From: a virus
Lineage: Duplodnaviria; Heunggongvirae; Uroviricota; Caudoviricetes
Length of the DNA: 64,000 nucleotides
Reading direction: 5' to 3' (one strand)
IMG/VR virus record: IMGVR_UViG_3300027917_003468
Coordinates: 1-64,000 of that record
This document shows positions 2,943 to 61,710 of this stretch, piece by piece. Each line of letters opens with the position of its first letter. The stretch's first letter is position 1. Position numbers and translations under genes: made by a program. The notes under the pieces were generated by a model. That model ran no database searches, was not told the DNA's origin, and saw nothing but the letters and a program-made list of their open reading frames with translations.

Positions 2943-3120
2943 GGTAAAAAGCTATTAGCACGGTGTTTCTATATACAAAACACTCTTGATAACATTTCAC
3001 CCTCTTTCTACTCCCACCCTACCCATATTTTTTTCCTTGACTTTACCTCTAACTAAATACTATAATCTAAGTATACAATTCATAACCATAATCAACCAGC
3101 AATCAGAGAAGGATACTTAC

Positions 3121-3951
3121 ATGACTCATTTTCAGTTATCAGCAAAACTAAATCACATACAATCCAGATACACTTACAACGCCCAAGCTTTTGACGAGCT
3201 AGATGGGGAGAGTGCATATTGGCTGGGGTTTATATATGCTGATGGGAACATGTACAACAATCGACTCACTATATGTTTACAGGCCAGGGATAGGTACGTA
3301 CTAGAACATTTTCGTTCGTTCATGCAAGCTGACATTTCCCTGCACTACCGGCCTCGCACAAATGCCTACGCCGTCAGTATCGGAAATCCGTATCTTGCTG
3401 CACGGTTGAAGATGTTAGGGGTAGTTCCAAGGAAGGCTAGAAAGATTCGTTATCCTGAGGTTATAAGTGAGTTAGGGTTAGATGGCGCTTTTATTCGGGG
3501 CTATTTTGATGGAGACGGATGGATTGCAATAGGTAAGCGTTCTACTCTAAGACTGGGGTTTGCATCGAACAGAGATTTCTTGGATGGGATTACAACAGTT
3601 ATAGAGGGGAAACTGGCGATAGTGAAACCCACATTCTTTGCAAACAAGCGTAAGCATCGAAATGGTTATTATGGTTCCATTAACTATTCAGGACGAGAGG
3701 ACATAAAAAAGATTGTGGATTTCATGTGTTCTGATATGGGATTCTTTATGGAACGGAAATTGGGGAAATTCTACAAGCTCTACATGCAGCTAGAAAACAA
3801 AAAAGGGAGACTAACAGGAAAAGAACGTAACGGTCGCCTTTACAAGAAATTCTATCTTCCTGAAGCACACCAGCAAGCCTATAGCCAGCTCCTTCTATTG
3901 AGCAGGGTACATGAGCCCCTTCCACCCTTTCCCTTTCAATCGGGGCACTAA
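3121..3951 (+). CDS. LAGLIDADG homing endonuclease (free-standing)
   Basis: Two LAGLIDADG-type motifs: WLGFIYADGN and IRGYFDGDGW. Start moved to the Met at 3121; the track start 2986 looks too far upstream. Confidence 0.75.
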   Translation: MTHFQLSAKLNHIQSRYTYNAQAFDELDGESAYWLGFIYADGNMYNNRLTICLQARDRYVLEHFRSFMQADISLHYRPRTNAYAVSIGNPYLAARLKMLGVVPRKARKIRYPEVISELGLDGAFIRGYFDGDGWIAIGKRSTLRLGFASNRDFLDGITTVIEGKLAIVKPTFFANKRKHRNGYYGSINYSGREDIKKIVDFMCSDMGFFMERKLGKFYKLYMQLENKKGRLTGKERNGRLYKKFYLPEAHQQAYSQLLLLSRVHEPLPPFPFQSGH

Positions 3952-4553: not shown

Positions 4554-5294
4554 ATGGAGCAAGCTAATACCGCCTTTGCAAGGGATTCTGGCGCTGTAGC
4601 TTTCGGAATGGAAGTTTACGAGGCCTTGAGATCGTATGCAATGGCTAGGAGAGAGTGGCCAAAGACATTACGAAAGCATTTAATAGAGATAATGGCATTT
4701 AGGATTTTAAGGGACCAGACCACAGACCAGAGAGAGCGAAACAGGTATACCGGTTATATCACTTATCGTTGGAATTTCTGGAATAACCAAGCAAAGAACA
4801 GGCGATATTACGAGAATACCCGAGAATGGCAACGAGCGAAGGCCAAGGTACATCTGGAGGAAAACTGGGAGGAGATAAATCACAGGAAGCGGAAAAATAA
4901 TCGTAGGAGGACAGCAGAGAACAGGAAATTGGCAGAGCAAGGAGATTGGCGAGGGATAGTACAAAGGATGGTTACGTCGGTTCGGTCCAGGTCCAAGAAG
5001 AAGAATGCTTGGGATGAGCCATTTGACATAACCGATGAATGGATACTAACAGAGATGGAGCGTAGTGAATATAGGTGTCCAGATGACTGGCTGATACCGA
5101 GCATTGACCGTATAGATTCTACAAGAGGGTATACACAAGAGAACTGTCAGATTACATGTTTGCTATATAACTATTTGAAGAGGGAAATGAATGACGTAAT
5201 AGCAAGGAGGATGATGGCTGATTTTTTAGATATGGCTTGCTTTTATTGGCCGCAGAAGAAGATAGCAATGGCACGGGAGCAGACGGCAGCGTAA
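4554..5294 (+). CDS. basic protein with degenerate HNH-like motif (IDRID...ENCQ)
   Basis: Strong RBS TAAGGAGGAG; C-terminal IDRIDSTRGYTQENCQ resembles the HNH DHID..N..NL motif with His changed to Arg. Confidence 0.45.
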   Translation: MEQANTAFARDSGAVAFGMEVYEALRSYAMARREWPKTLRKHLIEIMAFRILRDQTTDQRERNRYTGYITYRWNFWNNQAKNRRYYENTREWQRAKAKVHLEENWEEINHRKRKNNRRRTAENRKLAEQGDWRGIVQRMVTSVRSRSKKKNAWDEPFDITDEWILTEMERSEYRCPDDWLIPSIDRIDSTRGYTQENCQITCLLYNYLKREMNDVIARRMMADFLDMACFYWPQKKIAMAREQTAA

Positions 5295-5469: not shown

Positions 5470-6500
5470 GGTATGGATTTCTTCTTCCCTCTGGTTCATT
5501 TTGGCGAGCTGGCGGTCTAACTCTTCATGATTCACTTCTACACATTGGGGGTCTTAGCATGGATGATTCACTTTATGCCATTGGGTTCCTTTTACTTTGT
5601 GATTCGCTTTAGTCATATGGGCCTCTAAACTATGCTGGCTCACTCTAGGACTTTGGGCTCCTATGTGGGGATGATTCACTTAACAACAATGGATTTCTTT
5701 GGCTGGGTGGTTCACTTCTTTTTCAAGGGTTTCTTAAGAGTCTTGGCTCGCTTCGCTTATCTGGGTTTCTTTAAATTATTGGCTCGCTTTTGGTATATGG
5801 GTTTCTTATGACCGGTGATTCACTTAATCGCCATGGGTTTCTTATGAAAGGTGATTCACTAAACGATAATGGTTGCCTTTATCTGGGTGGTTCACTTCTT
5901 CTCTCAATGGGGTTCTTTCTTGTCATGATTCACTAATGCTCTTTGGATTTCTTTGAGTGGGTGATTCATTTCGGAAAGTTGGGTTTCTTAGAGATTGTGA
6001 TTCACTAACCAACCCTGGGCTTCTTTGATGTATTGATTCATTTCAATATCTTAGGTTTCTTAGGACCATTGATTCACTTTATGCCATTAAGAACCTATGG
6101 GTTCCTTTTACTTTGTGATTCACTTAATCATTTTGGGTTCCTTTGTAGCATTGATTTAAACACTTGATTCACTTTGCTCAATTGGATTCCTTGGAGTTCA
6201 TGATTCATTTCGGCAGCTTGGGTTCCTGCGTCCTAATGGTTTATTTGGGGACTCTGGGGTTTTTTGCGTCTATGGTTCACTTTACGGTCATGGAGTTCTG
6301 TCTGTCAATGATTCACTTGATCTTCCTGGGTTTCTTGGTTCTTGTGATTCACTTTGCGCCTCTAGGTTTCTTGCTTCTGATGGTTCACTTGCTCAAATTG
6401 GGCGTCTTTGATTTTGTGATTCACTTAATGATCATGGGTTCCTTTGAGTTTGTGGCTCATTTAAGGAGCTTGGTTGTCTTGAAAGTTATGATTATTCCTT
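5470..6500. repeat. non-coding tandem array, ~28 copies of a 36-bp unit (alternating 18-bp half-units TGATTCACTT / TGGGTTTCTT)
   Basis: Seen directly; each conserved block is followed by 7-8 variable nt; no long ORF except a repeat-driven 114-aa frame. Confidence 0.8.
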
Positions 6501-6543: not shown

Positions 6544-7497
6544 CTAATGCAACAATTTCATACCCTCATATACCCATCCTCGTTCTTCGGGCATAATCAT
6601 TCTATGAGCTCCTCCTAAAACTGCCACTGGATATACAGGATCGGTAGGCAGTCCTGATAGTGTTCTTCCTACGTACCAGTAATCGGCCAGGAAGTGTTTG
6701 GCAATCTCCCGGCATGCAGCATTATGGCGATGACCTTTGCTGGCATCTTTCCACATGACTTGCTTGTATCCCCCTTTGACTCTGGTGTGGGTAATACGCT
6801 CTGAGTCGATATACTTGGCTTTTACTTTTTCCTCAAGATAAGCATAAGGCCCTATCGGATCTTTGTTCTTGGCACGAATCTGAGACATGGCCATATTATA
6901 AAGCGCTGTTCTCAGGTTTCGGTTGCCGCCTCCTTTCTCTCCTCTTTTGTAGCGTTGGTAGGCAGGTTTGTCGTAGCCAGCATAAGCCCAAAGACTGGAG
7001 GCGTGATCGGCCTTTTCCAGATCGAGATATACCGTGCAATAAGCTACCGTAATGGGACCGATGTAGGGAACGCCCAAAGCAGAGGTAATAAGCGGGTTGT
7101 TCTCGCTCATCACCAGAATATGCTCTGAGACTTGCTGGGAGAGTTTATTCAGCCTATTTCGGTGAGGTTCCAGGTGTGCTTCGTAGTAGGCCAAGGTTTC
7201 GGGGTTTAAGTGATCGGTTCGGCGTTTTTTGAAGGCATCGATCCTGTTTTCAAGGGAGACCACAAGTTTCAGGATTTGATTACGGTCGTCTACAAGGCTC
7301 TTCAGGTGATCCAGCTCTTCGGTACGGTCTCGCCAGCTATCGTGATGTTTCAGATGCTCAACCGGTTCCATATATACAACATTTTCTTCTGAGTAAGTTC
7401 CTCCTTTCGATCCAGGTACTACACGGTGTTTGTCTCGACCTGCCTCCGACCCCTCTTCTAGTTCTTCTACTACTTTTTCATCTTCTAGTTTTGTCAT
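6544..7497 (-). CDS. IS110-family transposase C-terminal (Transposase_20-like) domain protein without recognisable DEDD N-domain
   Basis: GVPYIGPITVAY...AYAGYDKPAYQRYKRGEKGGGNRNLRTALYNMAMSQIR matches the IS110 C-domain pattern; N-terminus is acidic/coiled-coil. Confidence 0.5.
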   Translation of the reverse strand: MTKLEDEKVVEELEEGSEAGRDKHRVVPGSKGGTYSEENVVYMEPVEHLKHHDSWRDRTEELDHLKSLVDDRNQILKLVVSLENRIDAFKKRRTDHLNPETLAYYEAHLEPHRNRLNKLSQQVSEHILVMSENNPLITSALGVPYIGPITVAYCTVYLDLEKADHASSLWAYAGYDKPAYQRYKRGEKGGGNRNLRTALYNMAMSQIRAKNKDPIGPYAYLEEKVKAKYIDSERITHTRVKGGYKQVMWKDASKGHRHNAACREIAKHFLADYWYVGRTLSGLPTDPVYPVAVLGGAHRMIMPEERGWVYEGMKLLH

Positions 7498-7568
7498 TTC
7501 TCAGCTCCTTTATAGTGGTTGGCTTATACTATAAAGATGCATGAGAATGGCGTTTTTATCATCTCACC

Positions 7569-8036
7569 TCAAAAAAAATTGAAATTTTTTATATCCTTGA
7601 CAATATCCTGCCAGAATCTCTCTCGTAGCCACTTATCCATTACGGTGATAAGGTGTTGGTAGCTTTCGGTAGGCAGGGATACTTCATATTTTGCTGCTCG
7701 AACAATATCATCCCTCGTTCCTTTGATTTGGTCGGTTATAAGCCATTGAGCAGAGTCAAATAGCTTTCGGTTATGGATGATCTCGAACTTGAATTGCGGG
7801 TTTTCACTATCAGCCCAGAGACGGAAGAGATAGGGATAGGGACGGATACGTGGATGTTTGTAATCTTCGTATGCCCAGAGAACACGCCAGTACTCGATTA
7901 CGTCAGGGTTATATTCCGGTTCTACCCAATTAGTGTCTTCGTAATAGCGTGTGGTTTGGTCCTGGGTTTTAGGTATTGGTATTACAGGGATCAAGGCGGC
8001 TGCAGGTAGAGCTCGTAAGAATTCACGTCTTTTCAT
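7569..8036 (-). CDS. secreted protein with Tat-like signal (MKRREFLRALPAAALIP)
   Basis: Internal Met gives an RREFL twin-arginine-like signal peptide; the longer track ORF (to 8189) would overlap the upstream gene extensively. Confidence 0.4.
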   Translation of the reverse strand: MKRREFLRALPAAALIPVIPIPKTQDQTTRYYEDTNWVEPEYNPDVIEYWRVLWAYEDYKHPRIRPYPYLFRLWADSENPQFKFEIIHNRKLFDSAQWLITDQIKGTRDDIVRAAKYEVSLPTESYQHLITVMDKWLRERFWQDIVKDIKNFNFF

Positions 8037-23151: not shown

Positions 23152-24111
23152 TCAATTTTGTCTACTTCTGGCACTTTCACTATTCCTCTTTCTCTTGTGA
23201 TATTTTAAAATCCTGGCAAGGGAATCAGAGTAGGGAAGTGTCCTAGCGGTTTTAGATTTTTTCATAGCAAGTAACTGTGCCACAATCTTTGCCTCTTCTT
23301 GGCTGTATCGCAACCGTTTGGGATCTACTTTAGTACCTTTTGTTCCTGTCATATCACTGAGCATTTTATTTATATCATCAAGAAACTTTGGGTTGGCAAC
23401 TACGTCTAGATCGTAGCCACCTACAATTCTAGTAGCTGTTCCTCGCCCATCAAAATAGCCTCTTATGAATGACGTATGCAGTAAAGAATTGTTTAGGATA
23501 TTAGGATACTTGATATGTACAATGGGACGGACACCTAATTCAGAGAGCTTACTAACCAGTTCCTTACAGGTTATGGTAAAACGGATCCGAGTATCAGTTG
23601 TGATCCAAGGCTGTTTTGTATTTAGGAACTCTCGAAATCTATTAATTCGCATGGTGTGGAATCTGTCACTTGGAGCATTCACCTCAAAATGGTATTTGGA
23701 CTTGAGAAACCCTCTAGAATAAAGATATCCTAACCAATACACGGAGTGAATGTTGAGAGTATCAAATGCCTTATAGTTTATATCGTATTTTCTTCTTTTA
23801 ACGGGCTCTACTTTATTGCTCTTGAATATACGGGAGATGGTACTTGGACATACGTTATATTGTCTTGCTAGTTCTTCCAGGGTTTCTCCATTATACTTTT
23901 GGCACATGGTCTTAATTTGTTCAGGTGATAATTTTCTCCAACTACCACGCTTTCTAATAGGTTCCCCCCAAGCAATTAAATTTTTGGACACAGTCTCATG
24001 GGAAACACCATACTTTCTTCCTATAGCTCTGAGGGAACGACCTCTTTGGTAATCTTGTATTATTCTAGTTTTGAATCTCTCTACGGTGCTCACCGGTAAT
24101 ACCTCTTTCAA
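23152..24111 (-). CDS. LAGLIDADG homing endonuclease with N-terminal HTH domains
   Basis: VYWLGYLYSRGF and FIRGYFDGRGT motifs; N-terminal HTH repeats; paralog of 3121..3951. Confidence 0.75.
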   Translation of the reverse strand: MKEVLPVSTVERFKTRIIQDYQRGRSLRAIGRKYGVSHETVSKNLIAWGEPIRKRGSWRKLSPEQIKTMCQKYNGETLEELARQYNVCPSTISRIFKSNKVEPVKRRKYDINYKAFDTLNIHSVYWLGYLYSRGFLKSKYHFEVNAPSDRFHTMRINRFREFLNTKQPWITTDTRIRFTITCKELVSKLSELGVRPIVHIKYPNILNNSLLHTSFIRGYFDGRGTATRIVGGYDLDVVANPKFLDDINKMLSDMTGTKGTKVDPKRLRYSQEEAKIVAQLLAMKKSKTARTLPYSDSLARILKYHKRKRNSESARSRQN

Positions 24112-35849: not shown

Positions 35850-36731
35850 TTATATTTTTACTATATGTTGTTGCAGAAGCAAAGCAAACTCACTTTCACG
35901 ATCAAGTTCTCTCATATCTATTTTCCATGGTACAAGTTCGGCTCCATCACCTCTAATGGTATAGAATTCTCCACATTCGTCGCACACATAAATACAATGG
36001 TATCTATTTTGCTCTACTCCTACAGCGTTTTGGAGCTCAGGTAATACAATTTTAAGAAGACCAGTACTTTTCATGGTATGTATCATATTGCTGGGTACTG
36101 GATATTTCATTCCTTTTATGAGCTCCATCCTCAGCCTTTCTGCAGAGATACGTCTAATCTGCCGTGCATTTCTCCTTATACCGTTGAAGGTTTCTGGTGC
36201 TATGCTCATGTCCATGTCCAACGCCATGAACCGGCAAGCTCTCAACATTCTTAAGTAATCTTCCTGAAACCGTTTGTCTGCATTCCCTACAGTACGAATG
36301 ACTTTGTGGGAAATATCACGCTGTCCACCAAAGGGATCTAAAATACCATCGGTCTCCAAATCCAGTGCTATGGCATTCATAGTAAAATCTCGACGTTCAA
36401 GGTCGTCATTAATACTGTTAGAGAATTTTACAATGGGTTTCCTACCATTACATTGGAGATCCTTCCTAAAAGTAGTAATTTCAACTGCGTAATTTCGTTC
36501 TTTGCAGTAGATACCTAAAGTGCCGAAACTCTTACCAACACTGTAAATATAATAATCAGAGAATAACTTTTCGATTTCGTGCGGTTTCGCATTAGTGGCA
36601 AGATCTATATCTAATGGTTCTCTCTTGAGGTAAAGATCCCGCAGATATCCGCCGACAATATATGCCTTGTATCCTCTGCATATAAGCCTCTCGCCTATAA
36701 TCTGTGCAAATTCACCTAGTACGACACTCAT
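35850..36731 (-). CDS. cca: tRNA nucleotidyltransferase (CCA-adding enzyme) head/neck domain
   Basis: VGGYLRDLYL...DIDLAT (GGxxRD..DxD) and RRDFTMNA motifs. Confidence 0.8.
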   Translation of the reverse strand: MSVVLGEFAQIIGERLICRGYKAYIVGGYLRDLYLKREPLDIDLATNAKPHEIEKLFSDYYIYSVGKSFGTLGIYCKERNYAVEITTFRKDLQCNGRKPIVKFSNSINDDLERRDFTMNAIALDLETDGILDPFGGQRDISHKVIRTVGNADKRFQEDYLRMLRACRFMALDMDMSIAPETFNGIRRNARQIRRISAERLRMELIKGMKYPVPSNMIHTMKSTGLLKIVLPELQNAVGVEQNRYHCIYVCDECGEFYTIRGDGAELVPWKIDMRELDRESEFALLLQQHIVKI

Positions 36732-37392
36732 ATAAATATCTCTTTACCCTGTGTAGGAGTAGTTCTTTCTTATTGATCTCTGGATGTTCTAGTACCTGTT
36801 CGAGTAGGTGATTCAGAAGCTTTCCAAATACAGGTCCAGGTTTCAGTCCTAACTCGATCAGGTCATGCCCATTGATATCCAAATCGGTTACCTGCATCGG
36901 TGGTTGTTCAGTTTCAATCTCTCTAATTTTCTTTATGAGCTCTTTCAGATGAAAGTTGATTGGGGGTAAACCAGCCTTTGCCAGATTCCCTTTTCGGTCT
37001 GCAATCCGTAACCTTAAGTTGTCTCGGTAATCAGGATTGTTTACCATCCACCTCTTGATACTCTTGGGCTTTGTATCAGGAGTTACGAAATGCATGTGAT
37101 TCCTGACAACTCTGCAGATGTACTCCGTCTCGTTGTTACTGAATTTTAACCGGTCGCAGATCTCTCGGACCATCTTTTCACCCTCTACTTCGTGGGCAAA
37201 GAAATGATAGTCACCAGTATCTTTATCAACAGTACGAGTAGGCACTTTTCCAATATCATGGAGTAGTGCTGCTAACCGTAGAAGTGGGAATCGAGGGTTA
37301 ATTGCGTCCATTGTACGTACACTATGGCTGTACACGTCAGATACCTCTTCCACGCACTTTAGGTTCTCGTATTTGCATTTGTGCTTTTTCAT
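36712..37392 (-). CDS. HD-domain plus CCA-enzyme C-terminal tail domain protein (separate ORF upstream of, and overlapping by 20 nt, the NTase head)
   Basis: LAALLHDIGK ... NHMHF HD motifs; tail TDLDINGHDLIELGLKPGPVFGKLL resembles CCA/poly(A) polymerase C-terminal domains. Confidence 0.65.
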   Translation of the reverse strand: MKKHKCKYENLKCVEEVSDVYSHSVRTMDAINPRFPLLRLAALLHDIGKVPTRTVDKDTGDYHFFAHEVEGEKMVREICDRLKFSNNETEYICRVVRNHMHFVTPDTKPKSIKRWMVNNPDYRDNLRLRIADRKGNLAKAGLPPINFHLKELIKKIREIETEQPPMQVTDLDINGHDLIELGLKPGPVFGKLLNHLLEQVLEHPEINKKELLLHRVKRYLYECRTR

Positions 37393-37440
37393 TTTTTCCT
37401 TGCGTGTTTTTACCCTGCATTTGCGTACTATCTCTACGCA

Positions 37441-37515
37441 TGGTGGTGGTGTCGGGGATCGAACCCGAATCTTGCCGTTATAAGCGACCTACTCTGCCCA
37501 TTGAGTTACACCACC
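37441..37515 (-). tRNA. tRNA-Ile (TAT) tentative, CCA encoded
   Basis: Acceptor GGTGGTG/CACCACC; D-arm ACTCAATGGGCAGAGT; anticodon loop CTTATAA (top stem pair mismatched); T-loop GGGTTCGATCCCC. Confidence 0.6.
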
Positions 37516-38328
37516 AAAATAGAAGTTCTCCAGACATTCCTGTAGGAGATCTCTTATTTCTTCGTGGTGTATTTCTGGCCCCCAAGGAAGTGCGGAGTTC
37601 TCATAGATATGCTGCAATCTCGTCTCCATTTGTTTGAAATATATATGCACTTCCTCTAGGGTATAGAATCCTTTCATAACGGATTTTAGCTGCTCTCTGT
37701 TACGAGTCAGGTCAATATTGCCTCCCAGTAGAATTTGCTCGACCTCATCAAGAAGCCGGAAGATATGAACAGCAAACTTCGTGTCATATCCATACTTCTC
37801 GATCAGTGCCTTTCTTTCTGGACTTTCCCTGCCGTCTGGATCGGTTTTGATCTTGTTCAATTGGCTGAATGCGTATCCTTTAAATTTGTGCCAGGATCCT
37901 TTATGCAAGAACAGGTGCCGATTCTTCCGCACTAGTGTTGCGATTTCTGTTTCAATCAGCACACAATTCCTGGCAGTGAACAAGCTATCAACCATATTTG
38001 GGTTATTTGCTTCTACCAGTTTAAAATACTTTGCGATGTTGTAAATCTGGAAGTCCAAACTATCTTTTTTTGTTTCCCCTTCTACCTCTCCCCTAAACTG
38101 GTCAAATTTAGGAAAGTCATCGTAACCATAGATAAACCCAGATGAACTAGGGTAAACATATTCAATGGGTGGAATGGTAAATCCGTACACATCCCAGTCA
38201 CTGTTCTCGTGATGAGTTCCATATGCGTGACTACCCATAAGAGTCAGGTACTGGATGTTATCAACCATCCACTCCTGCCCCTCGGTAACACGACTTCTAA
38301 TTTTCTTGAGGATCGTGTCTTTATTCAT
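37489..38328 (-). CDS. Pol-beta-superfamily nucleotidyltransferase (YcgL-like)
   Basis: MGSHAYGTHHENSDWDV = GS-x10-DxD minimal nucleotidyltransferase motif; last ~8 codons overlap tRNA-Ile(TAT). Confidence 0.55.
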   Translation of the reverse strand: MNKDTILKKIRSRVTEGQEWMVDNIQYLTLMGSHAYGTHHENSDWDVYGFTIPPIEYVYPSSSGFIYGYDDFPKFDQFRGEVEGETKKDSLDFQIYNIAKYFKLVEANNPNMVDSLFTARNCVLIETEIATLVRKNRHLFLHKGSWHKFKGYAFSQLNKIKTDPDGRESPERKALIEKYGYDTKFAVHIFRLLDEVEQILLGGNIDLTRNREQLKSVMKGFYTLEEVHIYFKQMETRLQHIYENSALPWGPEIHHEEIRDLLQECLENFYFGGVTQWAE

Positions 38329-38437
38329 TTTGTCCTAAGGAATAAGAGGAGGAGAGGGGCGAAACTCCCCTCCCCTTTAGATATCAGATTTAGACTTCGC
38401 CCATAACAAAGCTGCGGATAATTCGAGGTACGTCGGT

Positions 38438-38623
38438 TCATATGTGCGCCCATGTATACCTGTGAACAATATTCCAAACGTTTGTCCGTTTAGCTCCTGT
38501 CAATTGTGCTATTTTCCAAATCGGTACGCTCTTTTGATACAAACTCCGAATCTCTTTTACTTGCTCCTCGGTCAGTTTGGCTTGGAAGTTCTTCTCTCCG
38601 CCTAGTGATTGTTTTTGGTTCAT
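38438..38623 (-). CDS. small HTH protein translationally coupled to rsr
   Basis: ATGA overlap with the rsr stop; HTH-like IWKIAQLTGAKRTNVWNIV. Confidence 0.4.
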   Translation of the reverse strand: MNQKQSLGGEKNFQAKLTEEQVKEIRSLYQKSVPIWKIAQLTGAKRTNVWNIVHRYTWAHI

Positions 38624-40233
38624 ATTTTATCTGTAACAAACGCCTCGATAACACGGGGAACCTCTGCCGAGAAGCCAACACAATCAAGCATCCCAGCATC
38701 TGTAGGATCGGCAATGGAGAAGTTGGTTGCAGTCATACCCATTACAATCAACTTCGCATCTGGATTTACAGCCTTACGGTAGTTGCGCAGTGCCTGATAT
38801 GGATGTGTACGCCCATACCATGTCTCGTTATCAGTAATTACGAGAAAGGTATCGAACTCTGCTCCCATTTTCTGTGCGTGAATCATTGGTAGCGCACAGT
38901 CCGTAGAACCGAAGTTACTGTCCCTCATCTTCCGCACAACTGTATCTAGCCGTTGTTTTGGGCTAATATCCAGTGGCTTGAACTGGTGAGAGAACTTGTA
39001 TACCGCATAGTCCTTCTCCGTATTGGCTGTAACCAGTGCCATTGCTCCTGCTGCTTCCACGCATCGTAGGTTGCTGTTCATGAGGTGCCAACTCATGGAT
39101 CCAGATACGTCAACAGCAATCATGAACCGCTTTCCTGTAGGTTCCACCGCCTTGAATGCTAGATAGAAAGCGCTGTCCAAAGCATCCACGACTCTCTGTA
39201 CTGGCTTCCAAGATAGGCTTCCCCTGAACCCCTGCCCTTCTGCATATGTCTTCAGGGCGAACAGGATTGCGATTGGATGTACACGAGCCTTTTGTAGGGC
39301 CTTCACGTCTCCCAGACTGTCCTCAATTTTTCTTACTAGGTCTAGGTTGTCAGTAGTCAGAAGTCCAACAGAGCTCATTACTCCCAAGTTCCTGATCATC
39401 GCTGTCATGGGCATCTTCTCGGCAAGAGTTTCCCACACCTTTTTACTTTTCTTGAACTTGGTAGGAAGCATCTCATGAGTCAGACCATGATCTCTGACGA
39501 TCTCGGTCAGTCTCTTTTCTGTCATGCCTTCCTCATGTGCTCTCATGTAGGCATCCAGCAAAAGAATACCGGTAGGCTTCACTTTCTTTTCCTTACCCTT
39601 GCCTTCGTAGAAAGCATCCCTATCGGTTACCCATTTGAACAGTAAGGATTCTTTCTCATCACGAGGCTTACGATGGATGACCCTCAGAGCATCTCGTTGA
39701 GACCAGTCGCCTCGGCTTTGGTACTTCACCATCTGGTAGGCCAACTTGTCCAGTGGCTTCTGGTACCAGTTCCACATCAGTCTCCGTACCTTCCGGTTCC
39801 AGCTTGTCAGTTCGTTCAGGTATCCAACAAAGGTTAGAAAATGTGTACCGGTTCTGACCACCTTGTTGATGTTATCAGGAGAGACGGACTGTCCCTTCGG
39901 CTGATTCGCCACGCAAAGAGCAAGAGCAAACAATGCTGGATCGTTCTTGTGTGCCAGACCTTGATCAGAAACCTCAACGATCTCTTTCACTGTGCGGTCG
40001 AAATCAGTACTGATACACTCAAGAACATTCTGGGCGCTCTTGACTGTGAGTGGATGCTCCTTTGTGTAATAGGTTCCACCCTCTGTTCCAAGGATGAGGA
40101 ACCTACGAAGTGTCTGCCACTCGTCAACCTGGAAGACATACCCACCGGCATAGTTCTTGACCTGATCTTTTCTGGCTTTTGTTCGCTGGTTTGTGTTTGT
40201 TACAGCCTTTGCGTAGTTTAGTTTCCGTGCCAT
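38620..40233 (-). CDS. rsr: Ro60/Rsr orthologue (TROVE domain + von Willebrand factor A (vWA) domain with metal-ion-dependent adhesion site (MIDAS) motif)
   Basis: GYVFQVDEWQTLRRFLILGTEGGTYYTKEHPL and PALFALALC match the Ro60 N-terminus as recalled from memory (no alignment run); vWA MIDAS MIAVDVSGSM. Confidence 0.9.
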   Translation of the reverse strand: MARKLNYAKAVTNTNQRTKARKDQVKNYAGGYVFQVDEWQTLRRFLILGTEGGTYYTKEHPLTVKSAQNVLECISTDFDRTVKEIVEVSDQGLAHKNDPALFALALCVANQPKGQSVSPDNINKVVRTGTHFLTFVGYLNELTSWNRKVRRLMWNWYQKPLDKLAYQMVKYQSRGDWSQRDALRVIHRKPRDEKESLLFKWVTDRDAFYEGKGKEKKVKPTGILLLDAYMRAHEEGMTEKRLTEIVRDHGLTHEMLPTKFKKSKKVWETLAEKMPMTAMIRNLGVMSSVGLLTTDNLDLVRKIEDSLGDVKALQKARVHPIAILFALKTYAEGQGFRGSLSWKPVQRVVDALDSAFYLAFKAVEPTGKRFMIAVDVSGSMSWHLMNSNLRCVEAAGAMALVTANTEKDYAVYKFSHQFKPLDISPKQRLDTVVRKMRDSNFGSTDCALPMIHAQKMGAEFDTFLVITDNETWYGRTHPYQALRNYRKAVNPDAKLIVMGMTATNFSIADPTDAGMLDCVGFSAEVPRVIEAFVTDKI

Positions 40234-40263
40234 GACCGTCCCTCCCTATTATGGGGGTTTCAA

Positions 40264-41022
40264 GGAGCGAAGTGGTTAAGGCCTATCCCTAACCTCGGCT
40301 CCTCATTAAAAATAGAGAACTGGATATTATACTTGAGTGGCGTGGGTTGCTTATCGATCTTGGCTATCTCAGTTCTCTGAAAAAGTTGGGAGCAAATTTG
40401 AAAGAGGAAGTTGCCCGAAGGCATTGCGGGTTTGATTAAATGTCAAATGCGATAATCCTCTTTCCCCGGCTCCCCAAACTGGTTTAGATAAAAAAATGAG
40501 GGCAAATAAACTTTGGAAGGAGGTATCATTATAAGTGATAACCTTCCAAATTCGGCCCTCCATCTTACTCAAGAACTAGGTGCGCTTTTTGGAGGTGAGT
40601 TCCTTTCACCTAATGGCTTTCCTAGTTCTGTTTTAAAAGTTGAGAGCTAAACCCGACCAAAGATCTGCCATTTAACACTGGGGTTGGGCGGCAAAACCCT
40701 CCGTTAACCTTTGACCCTCGGCTCTCCATATCATTTATTCCAAAAAAGTGAGAGCAAATCTTAGAGACGATGCCTTTTCCAATTAGGCTATCGCCCCATA
40801 TGTGGGGCGAAATAGATTCGAACTATTAATAACCATCTCTATCCGGCTCTCCAAAAAATTTAGGAGCAAAATTTAGTAAGGGGATCGACATGATCGACAT
40901 GTATGATAACCCTTTACCATCGGCTCCTCAAATTGTCAGATATATATAAGGTTGAGAGCAAAAATTGTTAGAGGGAGCGTTCGCACCATTGCAAGGTAAC
41001 CCTCTACCATTCGGCTCTCCAA
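40264..41022 (-). ncRNA. tandem array of 6-7 small structured RNA genes (Y-RNA-like candidates) immediately 5' of rsr
   Basis: Units on the + strand (co-oriented with rsr; minus-strand reading favoured) at ~40264-40302, 40388-40474, 40498-40560, 40642-40736, 40750-40851, 40863-40927, 40954-41019. Each has a terminal stem GAGAGC/GCTCTC with compensatory variants (GAGGGC/GCCCTC, GGGAGC/GCTCCC, GGAGC/GCTCC) and a second co-varying inner stem. On the minus strand one unit carries a canonical T-arm AATAG-TTCGAAT-CTATT and another a GCC-UUCG-GGC tetraloop. Confidence 0.55.
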
Positions 41023-41042
41023 ACCTTTTATTTCAAGGGGGC

Positions 41043-41098
41043 GGGAGAAATGGACTGGAATCAAGATATTTGGTATTGGTTATATCTCCATTTCTCCC
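41043..41098. repeat. 12-bp perfect inverted repeat GGGAGAAATGGA/TCCATTTCTCCC with ~32-nt loop
   Basis: Seen directly, just beyond the RNA array. Confidence 0.5.
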
Positions 41099-41146
41099 TA
41101 TGTTAACTTGGACATGTAATACAATTGCCCAAGGGAACTGTTACAA

Positions 41147-41205
41147 GCTTGACTCTATTTGTAACACGGTATAAAAATCGTGTCAAGCTTTTTTTTGAAA
41201 AATTT
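41147..41205 (+). terminator. hairpin CAAGCTTGAC..GTCAAGCTTG followed by T8 (A8 precedes on the opposite strand)
   Basis: 10-bp stem plus TTTTTTTT; orientation is puzzling because the neighbouring genes are on the minus strand. Confidence 0.45.
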
Positions 41206-41213
41206 AAATTTTT

Positions 41214-41912
41214 TTATTTCCTTGGTTTATAAGCTGCAGCAATCTCTTTATCTATTTCACCTGTACCTACTTGAGCTTTGAAAATGGGCTCTTCCCGTTT
41301 TACCCATGGAACTCCAACAGAGGCCAGAACCTGCCGTGCTTCTGTACGTTTTACAGGCATGCAACTCATCCCGGCCATGATTGCTGCAATGGCTCTATCA
41401 AAGGCAATCTTACGTCCGGTAGCTTTACAGAATTTTTGCTTGCCACCAGGAAATTGAGAGACGTGTTCTAATGGTGAACAAATAGAAATGCCTCTGTAAG
41501 TAGCCCCAAAGTAAATAATATCGCATATACATACTACGGGTCTGTTGTTATCATCCCGTAAGAAGAAGAATCTGGGCTTTTTGATGTCTGGATCTTCACT
41601 GTTTGGGTCTACCAGTTCATTCAGGTTATCAGTAGCTTCCTTTATTTCCTCCTTAATATCCCTCCATTTCCTCTCAAGTTCTGTGTATTCCTCAACTGTC
41701 TTTATATGTTGTGTCTGTTCCATCTCTTTCTTAGCCTCTTCCGCATCCTTTTTAAGTCTCGTTACCTTCTGTCTGAGGCTGTCAACTATTGAGTACTTCT
41801 TGATGGTATCTACAATGTGTTTTCGACGTTCTTTTCTCTCCTTTTTTCTTGGGAATTGGGTTGCCTTTGTAGCGTCGTCTTGTGCTTCGACTTTACGCTC
41901 TCCTGGTTCCAT
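41214..41912 (-). CDS. hypothetical coiled-coil protein
   Basis: ORF; promoter-like TTGACA-15-TATAAA on the minus strand at ~42005-41975. Confidence 0.5.
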   Translation of the reverse strand: MEPGERKVEAQDDATKATQFPRKKERKERRKHIVDTIKKYSIVDSLRQKVTRLKKDAEEAKKEMEQTQHIKTVEEYTELERKWRDIKEEIKEATDNLNELVDPNSEDPDIKKPRFFFLRDDNNRPVVCICDIIYFGATYRGISICSPLEHVSQFPGGKQKFCKATGRKIAFDRAIAAIMAGMSCMPVKRTEARQVLASVGVPWVKREEPIFKAQVGTGEIDKEIAAAYKPRK

Positions 41913-58714: not shown

Positions 58715-58934
58715 TGGTACGAGGGCAACAGCAACAGAGAATGCTTTACGATTTGTTTATTGTCCTCAGTGCGATGTGGTAAAAGCAAAAAGGGGCATAG
58801 CTTCTGAAATAGCGAAGTATAGATGCCCCCAATGTGACCACAAGCCGGTAATTTTTGCTAGGCCACCAACAGCACAAAGACTGCGTAGAGAGAAGGAGAG
58901 GCGAGGGATTGATGAGCCTTCAATCGGTAGCTAA
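58686..58934 (+). CDS. small Zn-ribbon protein
   Basis: CPQCD...CPQCD. Confidence 0.3.
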   Translation: MGCGCKKRTNGTRATATENALRFVYCPQCDVVKAKRGIASEIAKYRCPQCDHKPVIFARPPTAQRLRREKERRGIDEPSIGS

Positions 58935-61710
58935 TGATCAAATTACTGACAAACCAGTTCAAGTCGAATTGGATATGGATGAATGGTATAACTTGTGCCG
59001 TGAACGTCCTGATGCCTTTGCACACTATTATTTCAAACATATTCTTAGATCTCCTAGTAGCGACTTCCACTTCTTATTGTATTCTCTTATCAAAAAAATA
59101 AATGAGACACCCTATCCTAATAATATTGCTATTGCAGCCCCACGAGGAAGTGCCAAGACACAAATTATAAATGTAATCCTCCCTATCTGGTGTGCAGCCT
59201 TCGAACTAAAAAAATTTATTGTGGTTATGAGTGAAACAAGCAGATTGGCAGAAGCAAACTTAGAATCTATTAAGTATGAGCTTACGTCCAATGAACTTCT
59301 TGCTGAGCACTTTCCGCATCTTGTTGGTGAGGGAGCAACTTGGAGAAAGGAAGTTATTGATACTTGTAATGATATACGAATCATTGCAGTGGGCAGTGGT
59401 AAACAGGTACGAGGAAGTCAGAAGAAGGGAGGACACAGGCCTGATTTGACATTGTGCCATCCTGCTGGAACTAAAATACTAGGTACCAAAAATAATATTG
59501 ATGTATCTATGTTAACAGTAGGAGATAAAGTTTATAACCATAATTGGGAAGAGGATGAGATTATAGCCTGGAAACCTCATACTTGGACTGGTGATTACTA
59601 TAAATTCAAACTCTACGGGCACCCAGAAGAAATTGTAGCTACAGCAGGGCACCAATTTTTTGTAAGGAAGAGGGTAGGAAAAAAATATATAAGAACCGGT
59701 AATCACATGAAATGTTTAGATAGAGGAAAATGGAAGAGAAACCAATATGAATGCCTGGTAACATATTCAGAGCCCAAAAAATTGAATGTAAGAGAAATAG
59801 AAAAGGGGGATATGGTAGGGTATAAAATAAATACTAAAATAATTCCCATAGAAGAAATAGCAAGAAAAGAAAATTGGAATATATACAAACCTGGGGGGGA
59901 GATAATAAATAGGGATGATAAAGGTAGGATTGTACAAGGCGGTAAAGGATCATATAAGCCAGTAAATATTGGTGGTAAAGAGTGGTGGCTGGCTTCGAAG
60001 GAGTTTTGGTGGCTTGCAGGAGTATTTTTAGGAGATGGGACAGTAGATAGAAAAACAGGTTATAGTACTAGATTCTCTTGTAATCCGTCAGAAATAGACC
60101 ATATTAATAAAATTATTAGAAGTATCGAATTTTTGGGGAATACGCCCTCTAAAATCCGAGAGAAAACAGTTGTAAGTATACACCTATCAAATAGACTCAT
60201 AAATTATATTTTTAATCAATGGAAAAGAGAAAAGAACTCCCACAAAGTACCTTCAAGAAATATTGAGTTTTTAGATCCAGAATTACAAAGGCAATTAATC
60301 TTAGGTTATATTGCCGCAGATGGTTGGGTTTCTAAAGAGCAGGGGGTTAGAATTACATCGGTGTGTTTTGAGCTCCTAGAATTTATACAGAGGATCCTTC
60401 TTCGGCAGGGAATAGTTAGTAGTATTAGGAATGGAATAAAAGGAGGAGAGGTTAAAATATTTGACCGTATTGTAAACACTCAAGATAAGTATGATCTCTA
60501 TTTTAAACAAGATGCCTGGAAACTCGGTCTACTACCAAAACCAAAAAGCAAACTTAAATTGAATAAGCGCTGGTTTATTGAAGATGATACTGTGTGGAGA
60601 AAAGTTAAAAGTATAGGTTCAGAATATAAGACAGATATTGTATTTCCATTTAAAGTAAGAGATGAGCATTCTTATCTAACTACCCAATTTTATAGCCTAA
60701 ATTGTGATGACCTTTCCTCGGACGAGATGGTAAGAACAAAGAAAAGACGTGATGATCATGAGGATTGGTTTAGGAGGGCTGTTATGGGAATGGAAGGAAC
60801 GGCTGATACAAAAATGGATGTTATTGTCACAGGTACTATTCTACACCCCCATTGTCTTCTTTCCAAGTTACTAGATCCTAAAATATTTGCTGGTTGGGAA
60901 TCCTATAAATATAAAGCCATATACGAATTTTCTAAATCACCTCTATGGAAAACGTGGGAGCACCTTTATACAAGTTATGAGGATGAGAAGAGAGAAGAAA
61001 CTGCATACAATTTTTTTAAAGCGCATGAAAAAGAAATGCTAGAGGGTACTAAAGTGCTTTGGCCAGAGGGAGATGGGTACTATAAACTGATGGTTTATAA
61101 AATTAAAGCTGGACCAAGAGCTTTTGCTAGTGAGAAACAAAATACTGCAATTGATCCTTCACAAACTCTATTTGACCCACAAAGAATAGTTTACTTCGAC
61201 CGCAGGGACATAGATCTAGATAAATTGGTTATATATGGTGCTATAGATCCTGCTAGTGGTGAGGCAAAACGACAAGGAGACTTATCAGCAGTTGTAACTA
61301 TTGGCAGGGATCCAAAGTCAGGCATTATATATGTATTAGATGTAATGGCCGCAGCGAAGGGTCCTAGTTACTGTATTAAGTATATTAAAAGAGTGCATGA
61401 GCTCTATGACTACCGAAAGTTTGGAGTGGATCAGGACGCACTAAAAATGCTAAAGGATTTCATCGAGAAGGACATACCAGATTTACAGGGAAAATTAACC
61501 TTGTATGATTTGAGACTACCTAAACCTAAACGTATTGATCGATTAGAACCTATTATTCATAGTGGGCTCTTACGTTTTCAAAGGAATCAGTTAGAGGCGA
61601 CGGAGGAATTAACATTTTATCCCAATAGTGAGCATGACGATGTTCTGGATGCCTTAGAGATTGCTGTAAGACTTACAGGACACCGAGGTTACAGACTCTT
61701 AACATATTAG
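58912..61710 (+). CDS. terL: terminase large subunit interrupted by an intein
   Basis: Walker A AAPRGSAKT; exteins join to give RPDLTL-CDDL (Walker B-like); C-terminal nuclease region; start placed at MSLQSV after RBS GGAGAGG. Confidence 0.85.
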   Translation: MSLQSVANDQITDKPVQVELDMDEWYNLCRERPDAFAHYYFKHILRSPSSDFHFLLYSLIKKINETPYPNNIAIAAPRGSAKTQIINVILPIWCAAFELKKFIVVMSETSRLAEANLESIKYELTSNELLAEHFPHLVGEGATWRKEVIDTCNDIRIIAVGSGKQVRGSQKKGGHRPDLTLCHPAGTKILGTKNNIDVSMLTVGDKVYNHNWEEDEIIAWKPHTWTGDYYKFKLYGHPEEIVATAGHQFFVRKRVGKKYIRTGNHMKCLDRGKWKRNQYECLVTYSEPKKLNVREIEKGDMVGYKINTKIIPIEEIARKENWNIYKPGGEIINRDDKGRIVQGGKGSYKPVNIGGKEWWLASKEFWWLAGVFLGDGTVDRKTGYSTRFSCNPSEIDHINKIIRSIEFLGNTPSKIREKTVVSIHLSNRLINYIFNQWKREKNSHKVPSRNIEFLDPELQRQLILGYIAADGWVSKEQGVRITSVCFELLEFIQRILLRQGIVSSIRNGIKGGEVKIFDRIVNTQDKYDLYFKQDAWKLGLLPKPKSKLKLNKRWFIEDDTVWRKVKSIGSEYKTDIVFPFKVRDEHSYLTTQFYSLNCDDLSSDEMVRTKKRRDDHEDWFRRAVMGMEGTADTKMDVIVTGTILHPHCLLSKLLDPKIFAGWESYKYKAIYEFSKSPLWKTWEHLYTSYEDEKREETAYNFFKAHEKEMLEGTKVLWPEGDGYYKLMVYKIKAGPRAFASEKQNTAIDPSQTLFDPQRIVYFDRRDIDLDKLVIYGAIDPASGEAKRQGDLSAVVTIGRDPKSGIIYVLDVMAAAKGPSYCIKYIKRVHELYDYRKFGVDQDALKMLKDFIEKDIPDLQGKLTLYDLRLPKPKRIDRLEPIIHSGLLRFQRNQLEATEELTFYPNSEHDDVLDALEIAVRLTGHRGYRLLTY
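59455..60702 (+). mobile_element. intein (~416 aa) with LAGLIDADG homing-endonuclease domain inside terL
   Basis: Starts with CHPAGTKILG and ends ..FYSLN just before CDD; blocks LAGVFLGDGTV and LGYIAADGWVS. Confidence 0.75.

Follow-up and report, generated by a model that had tools for sequence, protein, structure and literature searches.

Y RNAs are obligate partners of the Ro60/Rsr proteins, from bacteria through humans. On the minus strand of the stretch analysed here (64,000 nucleotides, positions 1 to 64,000 of the Caudoviricetes virus record IMGVR_UViG_3300027917_003468, called the window below), an rsr gene is preceded by a cluster of small inverted repeats, which a preliminary description took for a multi-copy Y RNA locus. 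Are these repeats Y RNAs, on which strand are they read, and how unusual is such an array? On the evidence of structure, covariation, gene context and comparison with other rsr loci, the locus very probably consists of seven Y RNA genes in tandem that go with the Ro60/Rsr gene of the phage itself.

An rsr gene preceded by seven structured units

The product of the open reading frame (ORF) at 38620-40233 on the minus strand is a Ro60/Rsr orthologue, which was also the first assignment made for it. It matches the N-terminal TROVE domain, a HEAT-repeat ring (PF05731, E = 1.7e-37, residues 25-326), and the C-terminal Ro60-type vWA domain (vWA_Ro60, PF25045, E = 6e-65, residues 369-533), and both the TROVE peptide quoted in the preliminary description and the metal-ion-dependent adhesion site (MIDAS) motif DVSGSM, of the DxSxS type, can be read in it. 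The protein has 7963 homologues at E <= 1e-50, and those that carry names are called TROVE or 60 kDa SS-A/Ro. The array and the gene, in the 5' to 3' order of the minus strand, comprise the following features.

40954-41019, minus strand: U1, short Y RNA-like unit, GAGAGC-CCGAAUG-stem-UUACC...UUUUU-GCUCUC
40862-40928, minus strand: U2, short Y RNA-like unit, matched by covariance models R1 and R2
40750-40851, minus strand: U3, candidate YrlA-type Y RNA with a tRNA-like effector module, matched by Rfam YrlA
40642-40726, minus strand: U4, Y RNA-like unit whose inner stem has 11 bp, with GUUAAC and a branched insert, from descriptor and manual parse
40498-40560, minus strand: U5, short Y RNA-like unit and best family match (R1, R2)
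40388-40474, minus strand: U6, Y RNA-like unit with two small apical hairpins, matched by R2
40263-40303, minus strand: U7, minimal 41-nt unit, AGGAGC-CGA-GGUUAGGG-loop-CCUUAACC-ACUUC-GCUCCU
40240..40246, minus strand: rsr ribosome-binding site GGGAGGG, from sequence reading
38620..40233, minus strand: rsr, 537 aa, TROVE ring and vWA domain with the DVSGS MIDAS motif

The seven units span about 0.76 kb (40263-41019), on the same strand as rsr and 5' of it, at distances of 30-790 nt; 29 nt separate the end of U7 from the start codon. Tandem units upstream of rsr and on its strand had been described at the outset, with six or seven copies spaced 10-120 nt apart. The count is seven, and the spacing needs correction, since the units measure 41-102 nt and the gaps between them 9-85 nt.

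All units follow a common layout. Read 5' to 3', it begins with UG, a 6-bp closing strand ending in GC, C-G-(A/G) and a 6-11-bp inner stem; there follow, usually, UUAUC, UUACC or UUAAC, then a unit-specific insert of 5-60 nt, the inner return strand, a U-rich loop of 5-9 nt and the second closing strand. The helix junction therefore carries a conserved motif, G-C-C-G-R, on its 5' strand, with a U-rich 3' strand opposite. The closing stems are GAGAGC/GCTCTC, AGGAGC/GCTCCT, GAGGGC/GCCCTC and GGGAGC/GCTCCC, and the inner stems include TTTGGAAGG/CCTTCCAAA, GAAAGAGGA/TCCTCTTTC and TAGAGGG/CCCTCTA, so that the two co-varying stems proposed for the repeats are both present. The inserts beyond the second helix differ between units, again as proposed: U1, U2 and U5 have simple hairpins, U4 and U6 are branched, and U7 has almost none. 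U3 carries a tRNA-like domain of the YrlA type, with a D arm, a closed 8-bp 'acceptor' stem and the predicted T arm AATAG-TTCGAAT-CTATT, which we place at 40811-40827. A C(UUCG)G loop, also noticed early, caps one of the apical hairpins of U6 (40412-40423). A strict descriptor of this layout, scanned over both strands of the 64 kb, recovered six of the seven units, all on the minus strand, and gave zero hits elsewhere.

The units resemble known Y RNAs

Chen et al. 2014 characterise bacterial Y RNAs by the motif GNCGAAN0-1G near the 5' end, YUAY after a stem, and a position on the rsr strand at a distance of at most 4 kb (PMC4201824). Rsr is presumed to contact this motif, which is related to GGUCCGA, the sequence that Ro60 contacts in vertebrates (PMC4201824). 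All seven units lie on the rsr strand within 4 kb, and a long stem joining the 5' and 3' ends, with covariation, is present in the window, in its relative L008 and in independent loci. U1 has the exact motif (GCCGAAUG) and U5 has GCCGAA followed by UUUG; the junctions of U2 (GCCGAU), U3 (GCCGGA), U4 (GCCGAG), U6 (GCCGGG) and U7 (GCCGAG) share with them the invariant core GCCG.

We gathered rsr loci from IMG/VR, metagenomes and cultured phages, and saw the array-type module beside rsr in many of them. Covariance model R1 was seeded with 17 short units that lie beside rsr in other loci; the window and L008 contributed none. Pairing in the outer helix of this seed reaches 97%, 7 of 8 pairs show double-sided changes, and G.U recurs. 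Run against the 64-kb window, R1 found U5 (35.4 bits, E = 1.8e-5), U1 (31.0 bits, E = 1.6e-4) and U2 (E = 1.7e-4), and nothing else below E = 1. Model R2, rebuilt from 97 R1 hits in other loci, three of them from L008, returned six array units as its six best hits in the window: U5 (49.6 bits, E = 4.1e-9), U1 (42.5 bits, E = 1.7e-7), U2 (E = 6.6e-7), U6 (30.0 bits, E = 1.3e-4), U3 (E = 0.06) and U7 (12.1 bits, E = 1.8). The R2 consensus, GGGCCGAAG...GGUUAUC...ACUUGUCC, resembles the ends of human Y1, GGCUGGUCCGAAGGUAGUGAGUUAUC and ...CACUACUGCACUUGACUAGUC (PMC3928194). Because it fits the GNCGAA and YUAY of YrlA/YrlB, the vertebrate GGUCCGA and the human Y1 ends, we regard the units as Y RNAs in the accepted sense.

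U3 can be placed more closely. The Rfam YrlA model, suggested early on as a check, matches it over its full length (1-114) with 38.3 bits and E = 1.4e-6, although the Rfam alignment shifts the closing helix and puts the CCG junction into the model's internal loop. The tRNA-like effector module that follows YUAY in YrlA, with a UUCGAAU T loop and a GG-containing D loop, is found in U3 only; the other six units are without it. On sequence grounds, we classify the units as one YrlA-type and six shorter Y RNAs.

Several observations weigh against the assignment of the locus as a Y RNA array. The published GNCGAAN0-1G is exact only in U1, the other units having GCCGR. With R2, U3 and U7 are non-significant and U4 is missed, which leaves three of the seven units without a significant match, and the fold of U4 is no better than that of shuffled sequences (z = 0.2). 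U3 scores below the Rfam YrlA (RF02553) gathering score of 69, and the metazoan Y_RNA model (RF00019) has no match at E <= 10 in 40100-41300. When orthologous units were compared through single-sequence minimum free energy (MFE) folds and pairwise MAFFT alignments, 24/48 versus 25/45 changed pairs stayed paired, the two strands being alike. The array contains no tRNA, so that processing of the RNase P/Z type would have no obvious handle, and neither PNPase nor another known effector is encoded in the window.

Some of these points can be calibrated. The published ET08 YrlA, shown as a representative YrlA by Chen et al. 2014 (PMC4201824), scores 37.4 bits and that of BONAISHI 59.3 bits; since both fall below 69, the Rfam threshold excludes accepted phage members. 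At the gathering score, a search of the whole window with Rfam yields ten tRNAs only, and YrlA appears only in the E-value search. R2 finds the L008 orthologue of U4 with 25.8 bits. The MFE comparison is uninformative because the variable inserts were misfolded and misaligned. U4 is the weakest unit of the seven.

Pairing is conserved, and the rsr strand is favoured

Every unit but U4 folds 3.3 to 5.1 standard deviations better than shuffles, and in a fold of the 927-nt putative precursor (z = -4.9) the units form independently. Whole-unit MAFFT alignments misplace the 3' strand of the inner helix (61% paired in alignment A4); we therefore worked from a manual table of structures and from model-based realignments (A5, A6). 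In A6, which holds 14 units from the window and L008, 89% of cells are paired, compared with 73% in shuffled alignments and 44-56% when the partner strand is slid. It contains 42 double-sided changes where 13.7 +/- 3.3 are expected, a number reached by 0 of 500 shuffles. The manual table of 18 units has 107 of 108 outer-stem cells paired despite GC/AU/UA/CG swaps. An RNAalifold consensus of the window units and their L008 orthologues retains 11 double and 15 single compensatory changes, in a construction that leaves out broken pairs.

Imperfect palindromic repeats clustered in one intergenic region could in principle act as DNA, whether as iterons bound by a protein, as recombination sites or as a miniature mobile element, with incidental hairpins, and folding energies are indeed alike on both strands. 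We give this explanation almost no probability. What is conserved is pairing, through those same swaps, and not sequence. G.U pairs are tolerated, in 12 of 17 cases at one outer-helix position in other loci and in 10 cells against 1 A.C cell in the manual table of window and related units, and this opposes a DNA-level function because the other strand would show A.C mismatches. Moreover, no further copies occur in the 64-kb window, and all 193 family hits in our survey have the orientation of rsr. CRISPR-like or MITE-like (miniature inverted-repeat transposable element) repeats were rejected on related grounds: pairing of the constant parts is confined to single units, dispersed copies are absent and the contents of the units are orthologously conserved.

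As the MFE comparison does not separate the strands, the strand call for the Y RNA array rests on motif orientation, G.U pairs in the core helices and gene context. All three agree with the minus-strand reading given in the preliminary description.

Orthologous units in a related contig

L008, a relative found via the protein database, encodes an Rsr 85% identical to that of the window; another, L010 (81%), begins within rsr and is without the array. Scans with Rsr of metagenomes, IMG/VR and GTDB found nothing above 50% identity, and an exact-pattern scan of IMG/VR found no match for U7 and, for U5, one chance match within a coding region. The L008 array is orthologous, with the upstream hairpin HA and U1-U7 in window order, plus one additional YrlA-type unit between two hairpins of the HC type described below. 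ORFs overlapping the array (such as 40369-40572) were discarded as coding candidates, as their indels relative to L008 are not multiples of three.

Conservation differs along the array. U5, U6 and U7 are 94%, 87% and 95% identical to their L008 orthologues, the 29 nt from U7 to the ATG are 97% identical, and third codon positions of rsr stand at 64%. U1-U4 are only 59-72% identical, near the third-position value, and their helices are retained. The inner stem of U1 is rebuilt in L008 through compensatory changes, U2 has an A-U to G-C change, U3 has six double compensatory changes, and the outer stem of U4 co-varies (GAGAGC/GCUCUC versus AGGAGC/GCUCCU); U7 shows one G.U to A-U change.

The low identity of U1-U4, the poor R2 scores of U4 and U7, and shifts in copy number between the window and L008 (the additional YrlA-like unit; the hairpin HB) might indicate decaying tRNA- or Y-derived pseudogenes that arose by local duplication, perhaps with one or two active copies. 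This is very improbable: the fast-evolving units retain both helices via compensatory changes, U5, U6 and U7 have changed far less than synonymous-like sites, and each of the seven has a same-order orthologue in L008.

A single predicted promoter and a proposed mechanism

Two further elements delimit the predicted transcription unit.

41158..41186, minus strand: sigma-70-like promoter, TTGACA (41186-41181), 17-nt spacer, extended -10 TGtTACAAA
38350..38376, minus strand: terminator-like hairpin past rsr and a 61-aa ORF, 10-bp stem with 7 GC pairs, from a consensus scan

The -10 element of the sigma-70-like promoter lies at 41163-41158, with a predicted start near 41151. TTGACA and TGtTACAAA are identical in L008 and the 17-nt spacer has diverged, a pattern consistent with promoter function; an automated promoter scan misses the element because its -10 ends in A. 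The hairpin at 38350..38376 is likely, from its sequence, to end the transcription unit. A plus-strand terminator at 41164-41183 was considered and rejected: its stem overlaps the promoter spacer, it is unconserved in L008 and the neighbouring genes are all on the minus strand.

We propose that the array and rsr would be co-transcribed from TTGACA-N17-TGtTACAAA, from about 41151 through rsr to the hairpin at 38376-38350. The precursor would be cleaved in A/U-rich single-stranded linkers (e.g. ACUUUUUUGG) and the RNA ends trimmed back to the closing helices. Rsr would then take up each RNA on the outside of its ring and stabilise it, as in Xenopus, Deinococcus and Salmonella, and the differing effector modules could control access to the Rsr cavity or link Rsr to different partners, for instance host PNPase or enzymes that recognise tRNA. 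Processing of a single precursor 'like a tRNA array' is plausible by analogy. One conserved promoter, the lack of space for internal promoters and the D. radiodurans precedent favour a polycistronic precursor; the array itself is without tRNA genes, as ARAGORN and Rfam tRNA searches found none between 40200 and 41200.

The same arrangement would suit a cis-acting 5' leader of the rsr mRNA, in which the modules are never released and serve as Rsr-binding autoregulatory operators or message stabilisers, with U7 as the key element. There is one upstream promoter, most units are joined by linkers of 9-22 nt that leave no room for internal promoters, and U7 lies 29 nt before the ATG, with the unit and the next 29 nt 95-97% identical in L008. 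In the fold, a C-rich run can pair with part of the GGGAGGG ribosome-binding site, and a last unit ending some tens of nt upstream of the estimated rsr start is seen in several other loci. We nevertheless consider this unlikely for the array as a whole. In many loci (L018, L045, L087, L006) the module sits downstream of rsr or between tRNA genes, so a purely cis-acting leader cannot explain the family, and the Y RNAs characterised so far leave their polycistronic precursors and accumulate as free ribonucleoproteins. A leader function is compatible with the Y RNA assignment and could hold for U7 alone, which might double as an Rsr-responsive operator of rsr translation.

Whether the seven RNAs are distinct adaptors, with a common docking module and different effectors, or redundant copies is a separate matter. 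We suggest the former only tentatively, together with the broader idea that arrays of 3-9 units are general. If the adaptor idea holds, the phage would, in the course of infection, form a set of distinct Rsr ribonucleoproteins or titrate a number of host factors.

Other hairpins within and beside the array

Four hairpins outside the family accompany the units; HA, HB and HC, like the promoter-like element, are additions to the preliminary description.

41107..41133, minus strand: leader hairpin CTTGGG...TCCAAG at the predicted 5' end of the transcript, from MFE and centroid folds of the 927-nt region
41043..41098, minus strand: HA, perfect 12-bp stem GGGAGAAATGGA/TCCATTTCTCCC with a variable loop (inverted repeat I2, z = -5.0)
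40572..40629, minus strand: HB, second repeat family, AGAACUAGG...CCUAGUUCU (inverted repeat I6, z = -4.9)
40314..40378, minus strand: HC, second copy of the HB-type hairpin (inverted repeat I5, z = -3.6)

The stem of HA is identical in L008 and its loop has diverged; L008 also has a hairpin at the leader position, with its register shifted. HA contains a mini-ORF, AUG GAG AUA UAA (41073-41084, minus strand), preceded by GGGAG and kept in L008 with the stop UAG. It is probably a coincidence because only 2 nt separate it from the Shine-Dalgarno-like run.

HB and HC share a 9-bp stem, AGAACUrGG/CCyAGUUCU, and a 5' loop containing AGCCA. Their motif AGAACTRRRAHARCCA occurs only in these two and in two L008 copies (3168-3183, 3379-3394), and was not found in any other collected locus. 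HB is absent from L008. HC can be aligned with one L008 copy over that copy's 5' half and with the other over its 3' half, and these copies flank the additional YrlA-like unit; from sequence, HC resembles a hybrid of both copies, such as a deletion of that unit would leave.

Y RNA-like arrays beside other rsr genes

In the literature, at least two Y RNAs are known from each of three characterised bacteria, and 355 putative YrlAs have been reported in 254 bacteria and 22 phages. Our literature searches found no description of larger Y RNA arrays. Searching the collected rsr loci with R2, we obtained 163 hits in 66 other loci and 30 in nine loci of bacterial metagenome-assembled genomes (MAGs). 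All of these 193 hits lie beside rsr and on its strand, with 1 to 9 units per locus, and the counts are lower bounds as many loci are incomplete. The largest arrays, with the window's closest relative and the cultured phages, are as follows.

L018: at least 9 units, several adjoining tRNA genes at about 5 nt
L008: 7 (+1) units
L036 and L087 (Anaerolineaceae MAG): at least 6 units each
L002, L006, L012, L023, L045, L056 and L089: at least 5 units each
About ten loci: at least 4 units each
ET08, FuzzBuster and BONAISHI (cultured phages): 3 units each

The initial judgement that the tandem array is unusual stands relative to the literature, with its roughly two Y RNAs per species, and fails against this survey, in which 3-9 units per rsr locus are common. 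Seven units are the upper tail of a common pattern, not a singular oddity. Phage and bacterial rsr loci may quite generally carry tandem arrays of 3-9 Y RNA genes; in the searchable papers we found neither this nor units within tRNA arrays described.

In L018 (4701-7277; OWNT01000391, a seawater contig of 107 kb), rsr has one unit upstream and eight downstream. Several of them stand within a tRNA array, where, for example, a tRNA at 5959-6032 is followed by a unit at 6037-6152. The adjacency suggests co-processing with tRNAs, and also that phage tRNA islands can hide Y RNAs. Bacterial MAGs, from Anaerolineaceae, Verrucomicrobiota and a 5.16-Mb Trueperaceae contig, have arrays of 3-6 units on the rsr strand (L087 4673-5462, L089 2239-2883, L085 2538-2936). 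One unit of L056, an unrelated GC-rich locus (L056e, 2753-2857), weakly matches the Rfam nematode stem-bulge RNA model ceN72-3_ceN74-2 with 32.6 bits (gathering score 38); these nematode RNAs are regarded as Y RNA homologues. L006, an IMG/VR contig, has a permuted tmRNA gene (7454-7678, Rfam 71.4 bits) about 0.75 kb downstream of its Y RNA-like array, in a tRNA-rich stretch.

Gene neighbourhood

The locus lies within a long run of minus-strand genes, from about 6.5 to 58 kb of the window. The element looks like a large phage: PHROG matches include homing endonucleases, a sigma factor and a clamp-loader-like ATPase, and there is a long block of glycosyltransferase and methyltransferase genes. 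The source contig is 78 kb long, and a DNA-level search found no similar cultured phage. Ten tRNA genes lie at 24.8-37.5 kb (ARAGORN and Rfam tRNA). Downstream of rsr, on its strand, are the following genes.

37489-38328, minus strand: RlaP nucleotidyltransferase (Pfam RlaP, 3.4e-14)
37441-37515, minus strand: tRNA-Ile (ARAGORN)
36712-37392 and 35850-36731, minus strand: CCA-adding enzyme in two ORFs (PolyA_pol, PolyA_pol_RNAbd, HD, tRNA_NucTran2_2)

The CCA-adding enzyme also has a PHROG tRNA nucleotidyltransferase match (7e-62). The gene order from RlaP through tRNA-Ile to the CCA-adding enzyme (35850..38328, minus strand) is identical in L008, and the neighbourhood matches published phage RNA-repair modules (PMC7824862). 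RlaP, the CCA-adding enzyme and the ten tRNA genes suggest RNA quality control or repair that would shield the translation apparatus during infection. As a conjecture, the role may be to keep tRNA or rRNA functional, or to counter host RNA-targeting defences.

The two ORFs of the CCA-adding enzyme overlap and are permuted, the HD/tRNA_NucTran2 part (36712-37392) preceding the PolyA_pol head (35850-36731); L008 and L010 share this form. Between rsr and RlaP, the 61-aa ORF at 38438-38623 (minus strand) has weak PHROG HNH-endonuclease matches, and the 58 nt that separate the two genes in L008 leave no space for it. Elsewhere in the window, a 951-aa ORF (58855-61710, plus strand) probably contains an intein, because it has LAGLIDADG and intein-splicing domain matches; the related contig L011 has an intein in an epimerase instead. 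Dispersed homing-endonuclease-like genes and one transposase-like gene lie at 2986-3951 (plus), 4554-5294 (plus), 23152-24111 (minus) and 6544-7497 (minus).

Significance

The evidence supports a view of the array as the known Rsr/Y RNA partnership at high copy number, and neither the array nor the survey changes the basic picture of that partnership. What they bear on is the variable half of the Y RNA, in a field where studies cover only a handful of Y RNAs from bacteria and phages. The locus combines one constant, predicted Rsr-binding module with seven natural versions of the effector half, behind a single predicted promoter and within about 0.9 kb. With the orthologous L008 array marking the constrained parts, it is a compact substrate for binding, pull-down and knockout work. 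As arrays of 3-9 units are common beside rsr, and always on its strand, the figure of about two Y RNAs per species is probably an undercount, and phage 'tRNA islands' may hide others.

Comparison with known systems

The junction motif and its spacing are common to human Y1 (GGUCCGAAGGUAGUGAGUUAUC...CACUUGAC; PMC3928194) and U1 (GAGCCGAAUGGUAGAGGGUUACC...UUUUUGCUC). Metazoan Y RNAs are separate RNA polymerase III genes whose products are bound by La, whereas the units of the window belong to one predicted bacterial-type operon.

Deinococcus radiodurans, like the window, encodes several small RNAs 5' of rsr and in its orientation, namely Yrn1, Yrn2 and the small RNAs a, b and d. In both systems a long stem joining the 5' and 3' ends carries the Rsr-binding site, a predicted one in the window, and the other end is a variable effector module. 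Of the five small RNAs in D. radiodurans two are counted as Y RNAs (PMC4201824; bioRxiv 10.1101/312249), whereas the binding module is present in all seven units of the window. Yrn2, tRNAAsp and Yrn1 are made as one polycistronic precursor (PMC4201824); that locus is chromosomal with a tRNA-Asp in the precursor, and ours is a phage locus with no tRNA inside the array. An effector or gating role has been established for Yrn1 with PNPase and proposed for YrlA (bioRxiv 10.1101/312249).

Salmonella Typhimurium YrlA and YrlB (RF02553) share with U3 the Rsr-binding stem, YUAY, the T arm, a closed acceptor-like stem and the D arm. The RNA-repair context is comparable, with RtcB/RtcA in Salmonella and RlaP and the CCA-adding enzyme in the window, but Salmonella has two RNAs 3' of rsr and the window seven 5' of it.

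Cultured phages, namely mycobacteriophage ET08 with its relatives and Thermus phage phiLo, also encode Ro60, and Y RNA-like genes directly precede the Ro60 gene in its orientation. Yrl1 and Yrl2 of phiLo were identified by a CGAA motif in a stem-bulge-stem and bind the phage Ro60 in vitro (PMC12135203), and the phiLo Yrl RNAs form complexes with host PNPase (PMC12135203). In the records of these phages the Y RNA-like units are unannotated. The Rsr of the window is only 32-43% identical to the proteins of the cultured phages, and these have one to three copies of the Y RNA-like gene, compared with seven in the window.

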